From Candidatus Woesearchaeota archaeon (GTDB lineage Archaea > Nanobdellota > Nanobdellia > UBA10117 > JABICX01), in assembly GCA_018692915.1 (NCBI GenBank), contig JABHLG010000013.1, forward strand, positions 7,993 through 71,992: DNA of 64,000 bases. Direction: 5' to 3'. Position numbers and translations under genes: made by a program. Shown here piece by piece: positions 5,263-62,889 of the stretch. The notes beneath the pieces were generated by a model, which saw nothing but the letters and a program-made list of their open reading frames with translations, searched no databases and had not been told where the DNA came from. Within the stretch, counting starts at the first letter, position 1, and every line of letters begins with the position of its first letter.

Positions 5263-5573
5263 TTAGCCTTTGACTACGACTAGCGGTTTTAGTTTAGCAA
5301 CCTTTTTCGCAAGTCCGGTTTTATGAAGAACACCAATCAGCTTTTGACGTGCAAAAGCTGGCAAAACACTTTCCTGCGCATTGCTTGGAAAATTAACCTT
5401 TTACAACCACTATTGGCTTCAACTGAGCTTTTTCTTACAGAAAAAGTTCGCAAAAAGAACGTTGTTTTTCCAAAACAACTGCTTCGCAAATGCAATTTAT
5501 CCTTTTACAACTACAAGAGGTTTCAATTTAGCAACCTTTTTCGCAAGTCCGGTTTTATGAAGAACATCAATAA
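5263..5573. repeat. Nested terminus-duplication locus at the rtcB 3' end
   Basis: On the plus strand the order is displaced copy 3 (5263-5339, encodes VLHKTGLAKKVAKLKPLVVVKG*) and a B-type hairpin element (5340-5392). Then come displaced copy 2 (5393-5422, LKPIVVVKG*), an A-type element (5423-5496) and the functional rtcB end (5497-5573). Confidence 0.85.
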
Positions 5574-16470: not shown

Positions 16471-17247
16471 ATGAAATATATATTCAAACTATCTGGAGAG
16501 AATTATAATCTAGCAAAGTTTGAATTAGAAACTTTACTTAACAAAAAGCTGAAACGAAACAAAGATTCTGTTTCAATTGATTTGCCATTATCTACTGAGC
16601 AAATTAATAAAATTTGCAATCGCTCTGCAATGATTCAGAAATGCTACACTAATAACTTAAAAATTTGGGCAGCTAAATCAGACAAACGATTTGTTGCGAG
16701 GGTGCCGAAAAAGAAACCTAAACAACATCCTGCAATGCTCAAACCAAAGATGGCGCGTTTACTTGTAAATCTCACTAACGCTAAAAAACAGATTCTAGAT
16801 CCCTTTTGTGGAACTGGTTCAATTTTAATTGAAGCGGGAATTCTTGGTCTAAAACCTATTGGCTCAGATATTGATAGTAAAATGATCGAATACTCAAAGA
16901 TCAATACCAAACAATTCAAAGTTAAATCGGAACTAAAACAACTTGATGCAACTCAACTAGAAACTAATTTTAAAAATATTGAAGCAATTGCATGCGACCC
17001 ACCATACGGTATAAGTTCTACTCTTGCTGGAAAGAAAATGCAAGATTTATATCCAGACTTTCTAACAAGTGCAAATAAAATTCTAAAAAAAGGTTCTCGC
17101 TTAGTAATGGTTCGACCACATTATCTAAAACTTGGAGTCAACAAAGACTGGAAAAAACTAGGAGAATTTGACTGGTATATGCACAAAGGACTTACTAGAA
17201 AAATATTAGTACTTGAAAAAAGAAGTGCTACGAGCAATGCGAAGTAG
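16471..17247 (+). CDS. SAM-dependent RNA methyltransferase (Trm11/UPF0020-like, N2-guanine type)
   Basis: DPFCGTGSILIEAG (motif I) and ACDPPYG (motif IV). The last 7 codons (SATSNAK) read into an inserted element. Confidence 0.6.
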   Translation: MKYIFKLSGENYNLAKFELETLLNKKLKRNKDSVSIDLPLSTEQINKICNRSAMIQKCYTNNLKIWAAKSDKRFVARVPKKKPKQHPAMLKPKMARLLVNLTNAKKQILDPFCGTGSILIEAGILGLKPIGSDIDSKMIEYSKINTKQFKVKSELKQLDATQLETNFKNIEAIACDPPYGISSTLAGKKMQDLYPDFLTSANKILKKGSRLVMVRPHYLKLGVNKDWKKLGEFDWYMHKGLTRKILVLEKRSATSNAK

Positions 17248-17335
17248 TGTGCTTTTGCCAGCTTTTTCACTAAAAAGCTGTGTGTATATGCACAAAGGAC
17301 TCACTCGGAAGATTTTAGTATTAGAAAAGAGGTAA
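17175..17335. repeat. Terminus-duplication locus at the methyltransferase 3' end (B-type element)
   Basis: Copy 1 is 17175-17223 (YMHKGLTRKILVLEKR). The element is 17224-17283 and contains hairpin agctttttcactaaaaagct. Copy 2 is 17284-17335 (YMHKGLTRKILVLEKR*). Confidence 0.85.
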
Positions 17336-35864: not shown

Positions 35865-36036
35865 GAGCCAGTAGCTTAGTCTGGATAACCGTTAGGTTCT
35901 TGCTGAACCTTGGTTCAGGAATAGAGCACTTCCCTCCTAAGAGCTTTTTCTTTTCTAAAGAAAAAGTTCGCAAAAAGAAACTAATTTTTGTAAAAGAGGT
36001 AGGAAGGGGTCGCAGGTTCGAATCCTGTCTGGCTCG
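35865..36036 (+). tRNA. tRNA-Arg(CCU) with two introns (D-loop 35888-35923; 37/38 position 35941-36001)
   Basis: Hand fold. Acceptor gagccag/ctggctc, D stem gctt/gagc, anticodon stem cttcc/ggaag, loop ctCCTaa, T arm gcagg-ttcgaat-cctgt. The canonical intron carries the A-type core gagctttttcttttctaaagaaaaagttcgcaaaaagaaac. Confidence 0.75.
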
Positions 36037-45519: not shown

Positions 45520-47097
45520 TTGCTTAATTAAATCTATAAATTCTGGAACTGAAACAACTTCGTAATCATCAGAAAGCTGTGCAATTTCTGAATCAATATG
45601 TTTAGGGAAATTATATCGCATTTCTGTTCCAATAAATAAGAAAGCCGGTCGCTCTTTTGGTGTTCTTTCAACAATCCGTTCTGCTATATTTCCATCTTTT
45701 TCAACAAATGCTGCTGACCAAACTGCTGGATTGTCATTGTAAAATTCAATTGATTTACTATATGGCTGTAATATTGTGTATTCCATAAACAAACCATTAG
45801 ATATTTGAGAAAATTCATCTAACATTTCTGGAGAATAACCTCTAAATGCGATGTCAAGAAGCCAAATATATTTCAAATCAGATTCTTTCATAAATTTATC
45901 TGTGTGTTCAACAAAAGCAGGGAAGTATTTGTAAGTTGAAGGGTAAATAAATCCTCCTCCTGAAGGTGCAACAACAAGTGTATCTCCCTGTGGTAAATTT
46001 GAAGAGTAATATTCAAACATATTTGGTGCAAATTCATTCAAAAACGGACTTACACTCCAAGCAAGAGGAGTTTCGTGTTGCTGGGAAAAACTTTTGTATT
46101 TTGAATATGGAAGATCTAAATTATCTCCATCAGATAAAATTATAACAACATATACTTTATCCTCCAATGTAATATTTGATATTGGAGTTGAATGTGTTGG
46201 TTTTGCTCGTTCTAAAGCAGATAAAAAAGATAAATTTGGAACTCCAGGTATTGGAAGTGAAAAACATCCTTTTTCTGATAAATAACCAATTGTCTCGACT
46301 TCACCAATAATTCCAGGATTTATATTATATCCAACCATTGCACAGTCGGGATTCATCTGAGACATAATTTCATCACTAATTTCTGCTTCAGTTGTTGATT
46401 TATGATATACAGGCATTGGTGAATCTTCTCCACTAAGCGCTAAAGATGACATAATCATTTTATTCTTAACAATAAAATCGATGTGGTCTATTTTTCCGTC
46501 GCGAAATGAAATCATATTTTTGTTTGTTTCTTTTGAAACTTCAAGTACTAACATATTAATCTCTTCTTCAGAAAGAATTGTTAAATCATAAATTGGATCT
46601 TCTGCAGAAGTTACTGGAATTGCATCGTAAACTCCTGAAAGAGTAATTGCTAAATATTTCTGCTTAACTGAATCAACATCATATTTAATTGTAGGATAAT
46701 TAGAATAATCTAAGTCTGAAACTACTGTTTTTTCAGCAGAAATTTGCTCTAACCAAAATTCATCTTTCTCAGAACCAATAAGATATAGTATTGGCTTCTC
46801 ACGATTGAGCAAACCTTGGAAAACTCTTGCTTTTAATTCATCTTCATGAGATAATTCTGAGATATCATAAACTAACATTTGATCTGGCGAGCTTCGTGGA
46901 GTTGTTAAACCTTGAAAAGAAGTTGATTCAATTGTGGATATCTCGCGCGGAATCAGTCTTGAAACGCCCAAGACCAAAGGTCCGAATTTCTCTCCAGAAA
47001 CTAATGGATTTTTCAAAACTTGTGAAAATATAAAATTGCTTAAGATTATAAGAAATATAACAGATATAACGATTATTATGAGTTTTTTGCTTTTCAC
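45505..47097 (-). CDS. secreted protein, possible GxGYxYP-family glycoside hydrolase
   Basis: N-terminal TM/signal segment. APSGGGFIYPS resembles the GxGYxYP motif. Confidence 0.35.
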   Translation of the reverse strand: MKSKKLIIIVISVIFLIILSNFIFSQVLKNPLVSGEKFGPLVLGVSRLIPREISTIESTSFQGLTTPRSSPDQMLVYDISELSHEDELKARVFQGLLNREKPILYLIGSEKDEFWLEQISAEKTVVSDLDYSNYPTIKYDVDSVKQKYLAITLSGVYDAIPVTSAEDPIYDLTILSEEEINMLVLEVSKETNKNMISFRDGKIDHIDFIVKNKMIMSSLALSGEDSPMPVYHKSTTEAEISDEIMSQMNPDCAMVGYNINPGIIGEVETIGYLSEKGCFSLPIPGVPNLSFLSALERAKPTHSTPISNITLEDKVYVVIILSDGDNLDLPYSKYKSFSQQHETPLAWSVSPFLNEFAPNMFEYYSSNLPQGDTLVVAPSGGGFIYPSTYKYFPAFVEHTDKFMKESDLKYIWLLDIAFRGYSPEMLDEFSQISNGLFMEYTILQPYSKSIEFYNDNPAVWSAAFVEKDGNIAERIVERTPKERPAFLFIGTEMRYNFPKHIDSEIAQLSDDYEVVSVPEFIDLIKQSRIL

Positions 47098-47148
47098 ATA
47101 TTTGTATACTAAAAGAAATATTTAAGAGTTTTCAGTATTGCTGTAAAA

Positions 47149-47283
47149 ATGGATAAAATTCATATATACACGCAAGGATGCACAGGAGCTTTTTCCGCTT
47201 CGCGCAAAAAGTTCGCAAAAAATACATATTATAGAGGTTACTCAAAATGATAAAAATCTATATACATACACAAGGTTGTACAG
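47149..47283. repeat. Terminus-duplication locus at the MiaB-like gene 5' end (A-type element)
   Basis: Displaced start copy 47149-47185 (MDKIHIYTQGCT). Element 47186-47246 (gagctttttccgcttcgcgcaaaaagttcgcaaaaaatac...). Functional start 47247-47283 (MIKIYIHTQGCT). Confidence 0.8.
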
Positions 47284-48341
47284 CTAATCAATCAGATTCT
47301 GAAGTTATAGCTGGGCTGCTCAAAGAAGCAGGTTATAAACTAACTGATTTGAAAAATGCAGATTTAGTAATATTTAATACATGTAGTTTGAAAAGTCCCA
47401 CTGAGCAAAGTTTATTTAGGAAAATTCAAGACAATGCTAAAACTAAAAAAATAATTATTGCTGGCTGCTTTCCACTTTCATTTCCAGAAGATAAACGATT
47501 GAAAAACTATTCCTTACTAGGTAGCTTTGATTTGAAAAAAGTTGTTGATGTTGTTAGTAAAACACTAAATGGCAAGCGCGTTGTTCTGCTTAGTCGAAAA
47601 GCAGAAGATAAATCCTGTCTTCCAAAAATCAGAGATAATCAAAAAATTGCAAAAGTTGTAATATCAAAAGGCTGTCTTTCAAACTGTGCGTTTTGCGCGG
47701 GAAAAAAAGCTCGGGGAAAATTAGAAAGCTACAGTATTACAAATATTATATCTGAAGTTCAAGCTGCTGTTGCAGATGGATGCAATCGAATTTATTTAAC
47801 TTGTCAAGACACTGGCTGCTATGGCTTTGATCAAAACACAAATCTTATTGAGTTAGTTAAGAAAGTACTTGCAGTTAAAGGTAATTTTAAAGTTCGGATT
47901 GGAATGATGAGTCCACAGTGGGCTCTTAAATTATTACCTGAATTAATTGAAATTTATAAGCATGAAAAAGTTGTGAAATTCTTGCACATTCCTGTTCAGT
48001 CTGGCTCAGATAAAATTCTAAAGCTAATGAATCGGCAATACACTATAGCTGAATTCAAGAAGGTTGTTGAAACTTTCCGCAAACAGGTTCCAATAGACAG
48101 CATTTCAACAGATATAATTGTTGGCTTTCCTGGAGAGACTGAAGCAGATTTTAAGAAAACCGTTGAGCTGTTACAGTGGTTGAAGCCAGAAGTTCTGAAC
48201 ACAACAAAATACTGGCCTCGAAAAGGCACAGTTGCCGGTGATAATTACTTTAATTCAATTGATAATCCAAACAGCCATCAAGCAAAAGAGATTTCTAAAA
48301 TCAAACAAGAGCGAGCACTAATTCTACATCAATTAAAATAA
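47247..48341 (+). CDS. MiaB-like radical-SAM methylthiotransferase (archaeal e-MtaB/CDKAL1 type)
   Basis: N-terminal UPF0004 domain (HTQGCTANQSDSE) and radical SAM cluster CLSNCAFCAG. Confidence 0.75.
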   Translation: MIKIYIHTQGCTANQSDSEVIAGLLKEAGYKLTDLKNADLVIFNTCSLKSPTEQSLFRKIQDNAKTKKIIIAGCFPLSFPEDKRLKNYSLLGSFDLKKVVDVVSKTLNGKRVVLLSRKAEDKSCLPKIRDNQKIAKVVISKGCLSNCAFCAGKKARGKLESYSITNIISEVQAAVADGCNRIYLTCQDTGCYGFDQNTNLIELVKKVLAVKGNFKVRIGMMSPQWALKLLPELIEIYKHEKVVKFLHIPVQSGSDKILKLMNRQYTIAEFKKVVETFRKQVPIDSISTDIIVGFPGETEADFKKTVELLQWLKPEVLNTTKYWPRKGTVAGDNYFNSIDNPNSHQAKEISKIKQERALILHQLK

Positions 48342-50692: not shown

Positions 50693-50742
50693 CTCAATTC
50701 TCATAAATTCGAATTAAAATAAAAGCATTTGTTTAGTAAGGT

Positions 50743-50867
50743 CTATGCGTATTCTCTCCAAGTGTGATTGCCATTTTCTTTCTTGAAAGAAAGAAACTAT
50801 GCTTCCAAAGAAAGAACATATACTCGTGCTTCGCACGCAATTATGCGTATTCTCTCCAAGTGTGATT
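50743..50867. repeat. Terminus-duplication locus at the tfs 3' end (D/B-like element)
   Basis: 27-nt repeat (50743-50769 and 50841-50867, NHTWREYA*) with 26/27 identity, TAG vs TAA. It flanks a 71-nt insert gccattttctttcttgaaagaaagaaactatgcttccaaagaaagaac...gtgcttcgcacgcaa. Confidence 0.85.
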
Positions 50868-51155
50868 ACATTTAATGCATCTATAAAATTGGGTCTCTGC
50901 TTCATCAGTAGATCTTGTTTGTAATGACCAATTATATGCTTCAAGATGTTTGCATTTTGGGCACTTTTCTTTAACTTTTGCTAAAGTATCTGCAGTTTCC
51001 TCTTTAACTTTATGATTATCTTCGCAATCTGCTTTTTCTTTTAAAGATAATTCTGCTTTTGAATGTGATGAGTAACCACAAGAACAATGTATATTCTTCT
51101 TATCTGAAGATGGAATTAATAGACCACCACATTTTGGACAAAAAGGTGTGTTCAT
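50841..51155 (-). CDS. tfs: transcription factor S / RNAP subunit M family
   Basis: N-terminal CPKC..C.C ribbon and C-terminal CPKC...QTRSTDEAETQFYRCIKCNHTWRE TFIIS ribbon. Confidence 0.85.
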   Translation of the reverse strand: MNTPFCPKCGGLLIPSSDKKNIHCSCGYSSHSKAELSLKEKADCEDNHKVKEETADTLAKVKEKCPKCKHLEAYNWSLQTRSTDEAETQFYRCIKCNHTWREYA

Positions 51156-62727: not shown

Positions 62728-62780
62728 TAATTATAATATATCTTATTCTATATAAACTTTATGTGAATTTTAATAGAATT

Positions 62781-62889
62781 AATTAAAATTACTAACATCC
62801 TGTTCCTGTGTAATCCCTTCTTTTAAAAAGAAGGTTTTACAATCCCAAGAAATAAATTATAATTAAAATTACTAACATCCTGTTCCTGT
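62781..62889. repeat. Terminus-duplication locus at the 3' end of gene 62872-63735 (D-type, tRNA-intron-like element)
   Basis: Perfect 29-bp direct repeat aattaaaattactaacatcctgttcctgt (62781-62809 and 62861-62889). It flanks the 51-nt element gtaatcccttcttttaaaaagaaggttttacaatcccaagaaataaattat. Confidence 0.9.

Follow-up and report, generated by a model that had tools for sequence, protein, structure and literature searches.

A short element of the tRNA-intron family between two copies of a tRNA methylthiotransferase gene start in a Woesearchaeota archaeon

Integrative elements that rebuild the gene they enter are well known, among them prophage e14 and phage 21, which occupy the 3′ end of icd, and the SXT/R391 elements, which occupy the 5′ end of prfC. 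In fungal mitochondria, mobile open reading frames have given rise to gene hybrids such as atp6-ORF360 of Allomyces and the atp6, atp9 and cox2 genes of Glomus. Among archaea, a pNOB8-type element with a tRNA-Thr fragment has been described in Caldiarchaeum (PMC3293823). A different kind of mobility has been named tRNA intron “transposition” in the Thermoproteales, where, according to the account of Fujishima et al. (2010) given in PMC4090602, near-identical introns are present in unrelated tRNA genes and at unrelated positions. That account takes the spread to have occurred at the DNA level by an unknown mechanism, and the question of how archaeal tRNA introns arrive is also treated as open in a preprint on Asgard tRNA introns (bioRxiv 10.64898/2026.10.13.758758).

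Here we describe a locus at which a 61-nt non-coding element lies between two copies of the start of a tRNA methylthiotransferase gene. With e14/phage 21, SXT/R391 and the Caldiarchaeum element it has in common a displaced resident gene end and a respelled working end that the incoming DNA appears to have supplied. Those elements, however, are kilobases long, carry an integrase and use one fixed attachment site, whereas the element here is 61 nt, non-coding and associated with many unrelated genes. The fungal gene hybrids are similar in that the mobile DNA brings along a gene end from elsewhere, as it probably does here, and reduces the resident one to a stub, but the fungal elements carry a homing-endonuclease ORF, while no nuclease is associated with the elements described here. 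In being short, structured, multi-copy, protein-less and tolerated in or by coding sequence, the element also resembles the Rickettsia palindromic elements, the Correia/NEMIS and REP/BIME repeats and the IS200/IS605-derived palindromes; these, however, bring neither a replacement gene end nor a long variable duplication, whereas our element doubles as a tRNA intron in a genome without a Y1 transposase or TnpB. The Thermoproteales introns provide the likeness of one intron sequence at unrelated sites. The difference is that the present elements, with a core made of a hairpin and a mirror purine tract, also occur at the ends of protein genes between two copies of the gene end, and this leaves a readable insertion footprint. 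No published description of such elements was found in the literature.

The stretch analysed here (64,000 nt, hereafter the window) belongs to a genome of 608 kb in 13 contigs (32% G+C, 77% complete) with archaeal genes and many tRNA introns. An intact gene on the forward strand (47247–48341) encodes a CDKAL1/MtaB-type tRNA methylthiotransferase of 364 aa. Its N-terminal UPF0004 domain (PF00919, 8.4e-20, residues 3–78) and its radical-SAM domain (PF04055 Radical_SAM, 1.7e-26) place it among the MiaB/MtaB/CDKAL1 methylthiotransferases, and its homologues are named t6A37 methylthiotransferases of the CDKAL1/MtaB type in databases. Like the two most similar proteins, P0001 and P0002, with lengths of 372 and 381 aa, the protein has no C-terminal TRAM domain; in other genera the homologous open frames are 410–458 aa long. 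At least 20 contigs, from many samples, encode the exact protein, and 230 nt around the locus were identical in all eight loci read, which are independent assemblies from different samples. The arrangement is therefore not an assembly artefact.

The gene start is present twice. Copy 1 (47149–47185, forward strand) consists of the displaced first 12 codons plus 1 nt, with peptide MDKIHIYTQGCT and DNA sequence ATGGATAAAATTCATATATACACGCAAGGATGCACAG, and heads a 33-codon ORF (47149–47250). Copy 2 (47247–47283, forward strand) comprises the replacement first 12 codons (peptide MIKIYIHTQGCT, DNA sequence ATGATAAAAATCTATATACATACACAAGGTTGTACAG) and is contiguous with the gene body. A preliminary description of this DNA had regarded the upstream copy as displaced and the downstream copy as functional; copy 2 indeed heads the intact 364-aa ORF, and the sequences quoted there for both flanks and for the element were all found in place. 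The copies are identical at 27 of 37 nt. Our recount of the codons affected by the 10 nucleotide differences gives the same result as the preliminary description, namely four silent changes (ATT/ATC, ACG/ACA, GGA/GGT and TGC/TGT) and three replacements (D2I, H5Y and Y7H). Residues 2, 5 and 7 are variable across the methylthiotransferase family, and the changed codons at family-conserved positions (I4, T8, G10 and C11) are silent in four of four cases, so that copy 2 looks selected as a real N-terminus. A score of at least 27/37 at a spacing of 98 nt is reached at only 2 of 606,477 genome positions, the other being an element-bearing pair at window position 50741, which shows that the duplication is not due to chance.

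The element between the copies (47186–47246, forward strand, 61 nt) starts with GAGCTTTTTCCGCTTCGCGCAAAAAGTTCGCAAAAAATAC and ends with CTCAAA. Its first part is a hairpin (47186–47214, forward strand) of sequence GAGCTTTTTC CGC TTC GCG CAAAAAGTTC, which is followed on the 3′ side by a linker and purine tract (GCAAAAAA) and by a tail carrying a Shine-Dalgarno-like GAGGT (47234–47238, forward strand) 8 nt before the new ATG. The predicted fold has a dG of −12.1 and a z-score of −4.0. The window contains three perfect matches to the 16-mer AAAAAGTTCGCAAAAA, at 5441 behind rtcB, at 35961 in a tRNA-Arg intron and at 47206, where 0.39 matches with up to two mismatches would be expected by chance, and GAGCTTTTTC opens all three of these elements. 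The rtcB element (5425–5496, forward strand) lies directly behind the rtcB stop codon and is antisense to the gene. An nhmmer profile seeded with the three elements found 14 copies in the genome at E < 0.01 and about 10 weaker ones, giving a family of at least 14–20 genome copies; the core also has many matches in four related genomes. An E-value scan of 47050–47350 gave no Rfam match.

The hairpin closes at nucleotide 1 in 14 of 16 family members (dG −10 to −14 kcal/mol, z −2.4 to −6.3, from single folds), with a G-C closing pair in one subtype and a C-G pair in the other, and stems that differ in sequence between members still pair through compensatory changes. The purine tract 3′ of the hairpin mirrors the purine arm of the stem and co-varies with it across members (AAGAAAG/AAAGAAAC, AAAAGAGAAAA/AAAAGAGAAAC and AAGAAAGAAAAA/AAAAAGAAAGAA), the mirror in the copy at 47186–47246 being approximate only (CAAAAAG/CAAAAAA). 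A hairpin with a mirror purine tract is, as far as sequence can tell, the arrangement of intrastrand purine-motif triplex repeats.

The element is kin to tRNA introns. With introns allowed, ARAGORN reports 18 tRNA genes in the genome, 12 of which bear introns of 33–92 nt, and nearly all of the introns in these 12 genes have the same layout of hairpin, linker, mirror purine tract and tail. The canonical-position intron of tRNA-Arg(CCU) (35940–36000, forward strand; ARAGORN with introns allowed, Rfam tRNA) belongs to the family and is likewise 61 nt long. The core of the 47186–47246 element is identical to this intron at 32 of 39 positions, to the rtcB element at 31 of 36 and to a tRNA-Pro intron at 34 of 38, and homology to tRNA introns of the same genome is supported by nhmmer E-values of 1e-11 to 1e-6. 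Its nearest kin are two copies within archaellin-like genes on contig C8 (36/40 and 35/40), and with the copy in the second of these genes (C8b) it agrees at 49 of 60 positions over its full length, the tail being homologous down to the last bases. The AGAGGT near its end is also the terminal sequence of the tRNA-Arg intron and is there placed opposite the CCU anticodon loop. The preliminary description had spoken of a reuse of the tRNA-Arg intron core. The family relationship to that intron and to the rtcB element holds, but a special link to tRNA-Arg is overstated there, since nearly all tRNA introns share the architecture and the archaellin-like copies and the tRNA-Pro intron are closer.

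Related tRNA and rtcB loci were also inspected. The tRNA-Arg(CCU) gene (35865–36036) contains two introns, one at the canonical position and one in the D-loop, and is missed by ARAGORN under default settings. In its 3′ part (GGTTCAGGAATA), the D-loop intron is similar in sequence to the D-loop (AGTCTGGATAA), and this may reflect an exon-segment duplication like those at protein-gene ends. In G001, a genome of the same genus, tRNA-Arg(CCU) has three interruptions, in the D-loop, at the canonical site and in the T-arm (L027, contig G001:C32, about 1500–1700). The canonical site of that gene holds a hairpin element of a different subtype, indicating that introns at one site turn over fast. In two genomes of another genus (G004 and G005; loci L033 and L034), hairpin elements of the superfamily lie directly after the rtcB stop codon. 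The rtcB 3′ end is thus a recurrent landing site, and donors of gene ends plausibly exist.

Comparison with relatives identifies the empty site. The insert 47186–47283, made up of the element and copy 2, is absent from five relatives read as DNA. Relatives without the element are the same-genus genomes G001 and G002 and the metagenome relatives L021–L024, among which the N-terminal starts MEKIHIY, MNIHIY, MDKIHIY, MTKIHIY and MNIHIY were read; as L023 and L024 have the start sequence of G002, four distinct relative sequences are available. The spelling K-I-H-I-(Y/H) occurs in all seven of the relatives and database homologues, two of which are known as protein only and start MKIHIY, and IYIH occurs in none; among more distant homologues the starts MHKIHIH and MNIHIH are found. 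L021, the closest relative (82% aa identity), has the same MDKIHIYTQGCT peptide start as copy 1. Of 37 nt, copy 1 shares 34 with L021, 31 with L022, 30 with G001 and 28 with G002, and copy 2 shares 28, 28, 25 and 25, respectively. Deleting 47186–47283 makes the locus colinear with G001 over a stretch that takes in AATATTTAAGAGTT and the beginning of the divergent GxGYxYP gene, and in pairwise tests the alignment score with G001 was 120.5 for this deletion versus 110.5 when copy 1 and the element were deleted. Copy 1 moreover remains joined without a break to the conserved promoter and, beyond it, to the GxGYxYP gene. The preliminary description had left the choice of the ancestral copy to a comparison of MiaB-like N-termini in relatives, and this comparison assigns the ancestral spelling to copy 1.

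Whether copy 2 came from elsewhere was judged from bases present in none of the four relatives. There are 6 of these per 36 nt in the copy 2 block, 2 in copy 1, and 1, 1, 0, 1, 0, 1 and 1 in the next seven 36-nt blocks; the drop after copy 2 means that the unusual stretch stops at the duplication border. Some observations count against import. Strict polarisation leaves a small sample, with five derived sites in copy 2 versus one in copy 1 and four ambiguous (p = 0.11). The identity of copy 2 to L021 (27/36) is inside the range of other gene blocks (26–34), and the state at position 36 (ACA, codon 12) is common to both copies and present in no relative. No donor DNA for MIKIYIHTQGCT was found in genome contigs (searched with a degenerate DNA pattern) or in a scan of metagenome contigs, which returned four relatives, none with that start; no KIYIHTQGC or IYIH start turned up among 5.8 billion proteins (word search of residues 1–40), and blastn-short detected no second copy of copy 2 within the genome. 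Judged from these sequence comparisons, copy 1 is probably resident, with the element and copy 2 forming a 98-nt insertion in which copy 2 was imported; we do not put this call higher because the polarised sample is small. Two bases of copy 1 are unseen in relatives, a C at 47181 and an A at 47184, both within 5 nt of the element border and the A shared with copy 2, and these may represent a short exchange tract at the junction.

The same pattern recurs at other gene ends. A local direct-repeat scan of the genome found about a dozen gene-end pairs parted by such elements, and in 12 of 12 pairs the order, read in the orientation of the element, is displaced copy, element, working copy with gene body. 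At gene starts the element is in sense orientation, at gene ends in antisense. The duplications are 15–75 nt long, and mismatches between the copies are confined to the roughly 30 nt nearest the start or stop codon, the inner part being identical (combined p = 1.2e-5). For the rtcB pair, 8 of 9 nucleotide differences in 75 nt fall in the first 30, and 8 of the 9 are silent by codon reading; for the pair at window 17173, all 8 fall in the first 30 of 48 nt, and for a pair on contig C10 (C10:53204), all 9 fall in the first 26 of 52. In other pairs nearly every difference is silent, and among them are codon switches that need several steps, such as AGA/CGG and CTT/TTA.

Two of the pairs are informative about the source of the outer sequence. 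The peptide encoded by the displaced copy at C10:53204 is exactly the N-terminus of its G002 orthologue, and a reading of the sequence gives seven silent and three replacement codons. In the 3′ pair at window 17173–17335, the displaced copy keeps the ancestral ending (LEKR followed by the stop codon), while the working copy has lost the stop and gained seven codons from the element tail; the last 33 nt of the working copy are 94% identical to G001 versus 77% just upstream, in a G001 contig that ends just past the gene. Both pairs fit the view that the stub is resident and the working copy a chimera with ~30 nt of foreign sequence at its outer end, G001 being a distant outgroup for 3′ pairs. 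The preliminary description had also proposed that 5′ pairs are less strictly silent than 3′ pairs. Replacements are in fact more numerous at 5′ ends (three here and three at C10:53204, set beside eight of nine silent differences in rtcB), but in copy 2, whose replacements fall on variable residues and whose changes at conserved ones are silent, they do not look like a sign of laxer selection.

Individual loci showed further peculiarities. The C10 pair (C10:53184–53371, outside the window) lies at the 5′ end of a 430-aa gene that matches PHP_C (PHP-associated) below threshold, and the inner border of its working copy has a compensated frameshift (TS-NK-LD, where relatives have TS-KS-LD). The pair at window 50741–50873 has the 98-nt spacing and a perfect 26-nt duplication, with TAG as the displaced and TAA as the working stop codon. 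In the in-register scan, a perfect 30-nt pair at window 62780–62889 scored H 4, h 6, h′ 4, a strict bulge-helix-bulge-like pattern that may be a mere palindrome within the repeat. On contig C8, outside the window, tandem archaellin/pilin-like genes (C8:52658–52761 and C8:53404–53509) carry the element in frame (84 nt) in the leader, ahead of the KKG/ITP site, which we take to be a class III signal-peptide cleavage site. As the inner copy in the second gene (C8b) lacks an ATG, the element there must be translated or spliced out.

Signals around the two starts bear on how the interrupted gene is expressed. An AT-rich promoter block (AAATATTTAAGAG, 47116–47128, forward strand) is conserved in G001 and L022; its TTTAA core lies some 26 nt upstream of the old ATG. 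Genome-wide, TATA-like motifs peak 21–28 nt before ATGs and a Shine-Dalgarno-like motif is present in only 18% of genes, which together indicate that leaderless mRNAs dominate. No TATA-like motif was found at that distance before the new ATG (47247). The GAGGT of the element tail starts at −13 from this ATG, within the genome-wide Shine-Dalgarno-like peak of −16 to −10, and the TGA stop codon of the old-start ORF overlaps the new ATG in an ATGA (47247–47250, forward strand). A stop-start overlap of the same kind is present at the independent 5′ pair C10:53204. The old-start ORF remains open through the element in all 5–6 of the 5′ pairs, with a chance expectation of about 0.01–0.05; in the 5′ pair at window 33800 it stops 15 nt past the new ATG, with a GGAGGT, and both archaellin-like genes read through the element in frame.

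Termination-reinitiation coupling at overlapping stop and start codons (AUGA) occurs in archaeal and bacterial operons. The present arrangement is alike in that the UGA of an upstream ORF overlaps the AUG of the working gene with a Shine-Dalgarno sequence in front; it differs in that the upstream “gene” is a cut-off old start plus element sequence, made by insertion. The ATGA overlap behind a Shine-Dalgarno site suggests a hand-over of ribosomes from the old leaderless start. Under this model the promoter would still stand ahead of the old start and produce a predicted leaderless mRNA; ribosomes would begin at the old AUG, translate through the open frame of the element and halt at the UGA in AUGA, and re-initiation would follow at the overlapping new AUG, aided by the GAGGU in the element tail. 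A T5 run inside the element counts against the hand-over, however, as it could end archaeal transcription before the new start.

We assign a probability of roughly 55% to the reading that a small protein-less mobile element entered the methylthiotransferase gene 37 nt past its start and brought a replacement start with it, the ribosome hand-over and a primed insertion being the steps that we infer. The mobile unit would consist of the hairpin, the mirror-image purine tract and the short tail, and would belong to the family that forms the core of most tRNA introns here. The 98-nt insert would then be the 61-nt element plus a respelled set of the first 12 codons, probably foreign and derived from the gene of an unsampled relative; the imported copy would keep the gene whole, and the resident first 12 codons would be left upstream as a stub. 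As to the route, an element carrying a short gene-end stretch (up to ~30 nt) at its 3′ side could pair through the 3′ end of a single strand with the target gene and prime re-copying of resident DNA as far as the insertion point. The 5′ end with its hairpin structure would be joined to the broken resident strand, and the product would be resident copy, element and chimeric working copy. This primed-copy model is favoured by the fixed polarity of the pairs, the sharpness of the 5′ border, which lies at the hairpin base, a foreign tract that is short and adjoins the 3′ end of the element, and the identical inner tract. A two-step history is also possible, in which a perfect duplication was followed by a swap of the adjacent 30 nt with another lineage, the element serving as homology anchor. 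Searches of the 77%-complete genome found no Y1_Tnp, no TnpB zinc ribbon and no reverse transcriptase (RVT_1), and guide-like complementarity between element and target did not exceed chance in 12 pairs (longest 5–8 nt, p 0.17–0.97 versus shuffles).

Other histories of the locus have to be weighed against this reading. Ordinary transposition could have produced a long target-site duplication on the spot, in which case the copies would once have been identical and later diverged, with nothing imported. Young pairs in the window do have perfect 26–30-nt duplications, both copies here share the ACA at codon 12 that no relative has, and a donor was found neither in genome contigs nor in metagenome contigs or the 5.8 billion proteins. 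We nevertheless consider such a history unlikely: an unused copy should decay faster, yet unique changes number 1–2 in copy 1 and 5–8 in copy 2; other pairs show nearly all silent differences with multi-step codon switches; the differences stay within ~30 nt of the gene end; the duplications have no uniform length (15–75 nt); and the 77%-complete genome yielded no transposase. Another proposal places the event at the RNA level, where the 98 nt would be a tRNA-type intron in the mRNA that is cut out by the splicing endonuclease and RtcB, leaving the old start at the head of the protein and copy 2 as a passenger. The homology of the element to true tRNA introns speaks for it, as do the restoration of the ancestral ORF by excision of exactly 47186–47283, a relaxed motif exactly at the borders (central helix 3/4, GCAC/GUAC; inner helix 6 bp), the absence of replacements in copy 1 relative to L021 and the second copy without ATG in C8b. 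Yet no strict bulge-helix-bulge motif of frame-restoring length exists, the best in-register candidate (H 3/4, h′ 6 bp) having no exon-exon helix (h = 0), so that the locus lacks an hBHBh′/HBh′ motif; even the tRNA-Arg intron reaches no more than H 3/4, h 5, h′ 0. At this locus, the inner helix of 6 bp would have to compete with the far stronger element hairpin, no in-register motif recurs across the 12 pairs, and elements at 3′ ends are antisense to the mRNA. Splicing would also leave the open frame, the ATGA overlap and the Shine-Dalgarno site unexplained, and the fact that conserved codons of copy 2 changed only silently speaks for its translation, all of which makes it distinctly improbable.

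The layout, in which a displaced resident end and a working replacement end flank an insert, is that of integrative elements, and one could see in the locus what is left of a larger, integrase-driven element, a virus or plasmid, which had the replacement start within its attachment site and was later emptied of its interior. The same layout is seen in e14 in icd and in the tRNA-Thr fragment of Caldiarchaeum (PMC3293823), and the genome does encode one tyrosine recombinase (a Phage_integrase match on contig C12). However, unrelated genes are accompanied by this 61-nt element, with homology down to the last base, and one recombinase, encoded on another contig, could not recognise sites so different; repeated exact loss of all but the same hairpin is implausible, and we regard this origin as very unlikely. 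An integrase-driven element in the strict sense does not fit, as the 98-nt insert has no ORF of its own and no single attachment core is shared where the same element lies by unrelated genes. A MITE or IS-derived transposon does not fit either: terminal inverted repeats are absent (the hairpin is at the 5′ end only and the tail is unrelated to it), the duplication of 15–75 nt is not fixed, and no cognate transposase was found in the 77%-complete genome. Finally, in a genome of 32% G+C short A/T words recur everywhere, and the likeness might be fortuitous, with no real element or duplication behind it; a generic low-complexity A/T run was also what the preliminary description had named as the outcome that would overturn it. 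The data point to a structured hairpin family instead. Three exact 16-mers against 0.39 expected, a duplication score reached at 2 of 606,477 positions and compensatory changes in the hairpin stems reduce chance to a negligible explanation.

The preferred reading, insertion of a small element with a replacement start, makes this locus an intron-family element caught in a protein gene together with its footprint, namely an empty site, a fixed polarity and a short, probably foreign gene end. Such a footprint constrains the mechanism of intron movement far more than comparisons of introns only. The arrangement further suggests a way in which a leaderless gene can withstand an insertion immediately behind its start, with the old start kept for initiation and ribosomes passed on at the AUGA. 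A broader idea is offered tentatively and is less likely than the reading of this one locus: the hairpin elements might be the DNA-level mobile form of archaeal tRNA introns, with 3′-end-primed copying by host enzymes dragging ~30 nt of gene end between lineages, and they would persist as introns in tRNA genes, survive at protein-gene ends only with a spare gene end, and be translated through at 5′ ends. If true, this would provide a concrete route for archaeal intron gain and define a new class of protein-less, gene-end-swapping elements common to DPANN archaea and ultra-small bacteria. As the affected genes (RtcB, the tRNA methylthiotransferase and the tRNAs) are conserved, the elements could move short pieces of essential genes between lineages.
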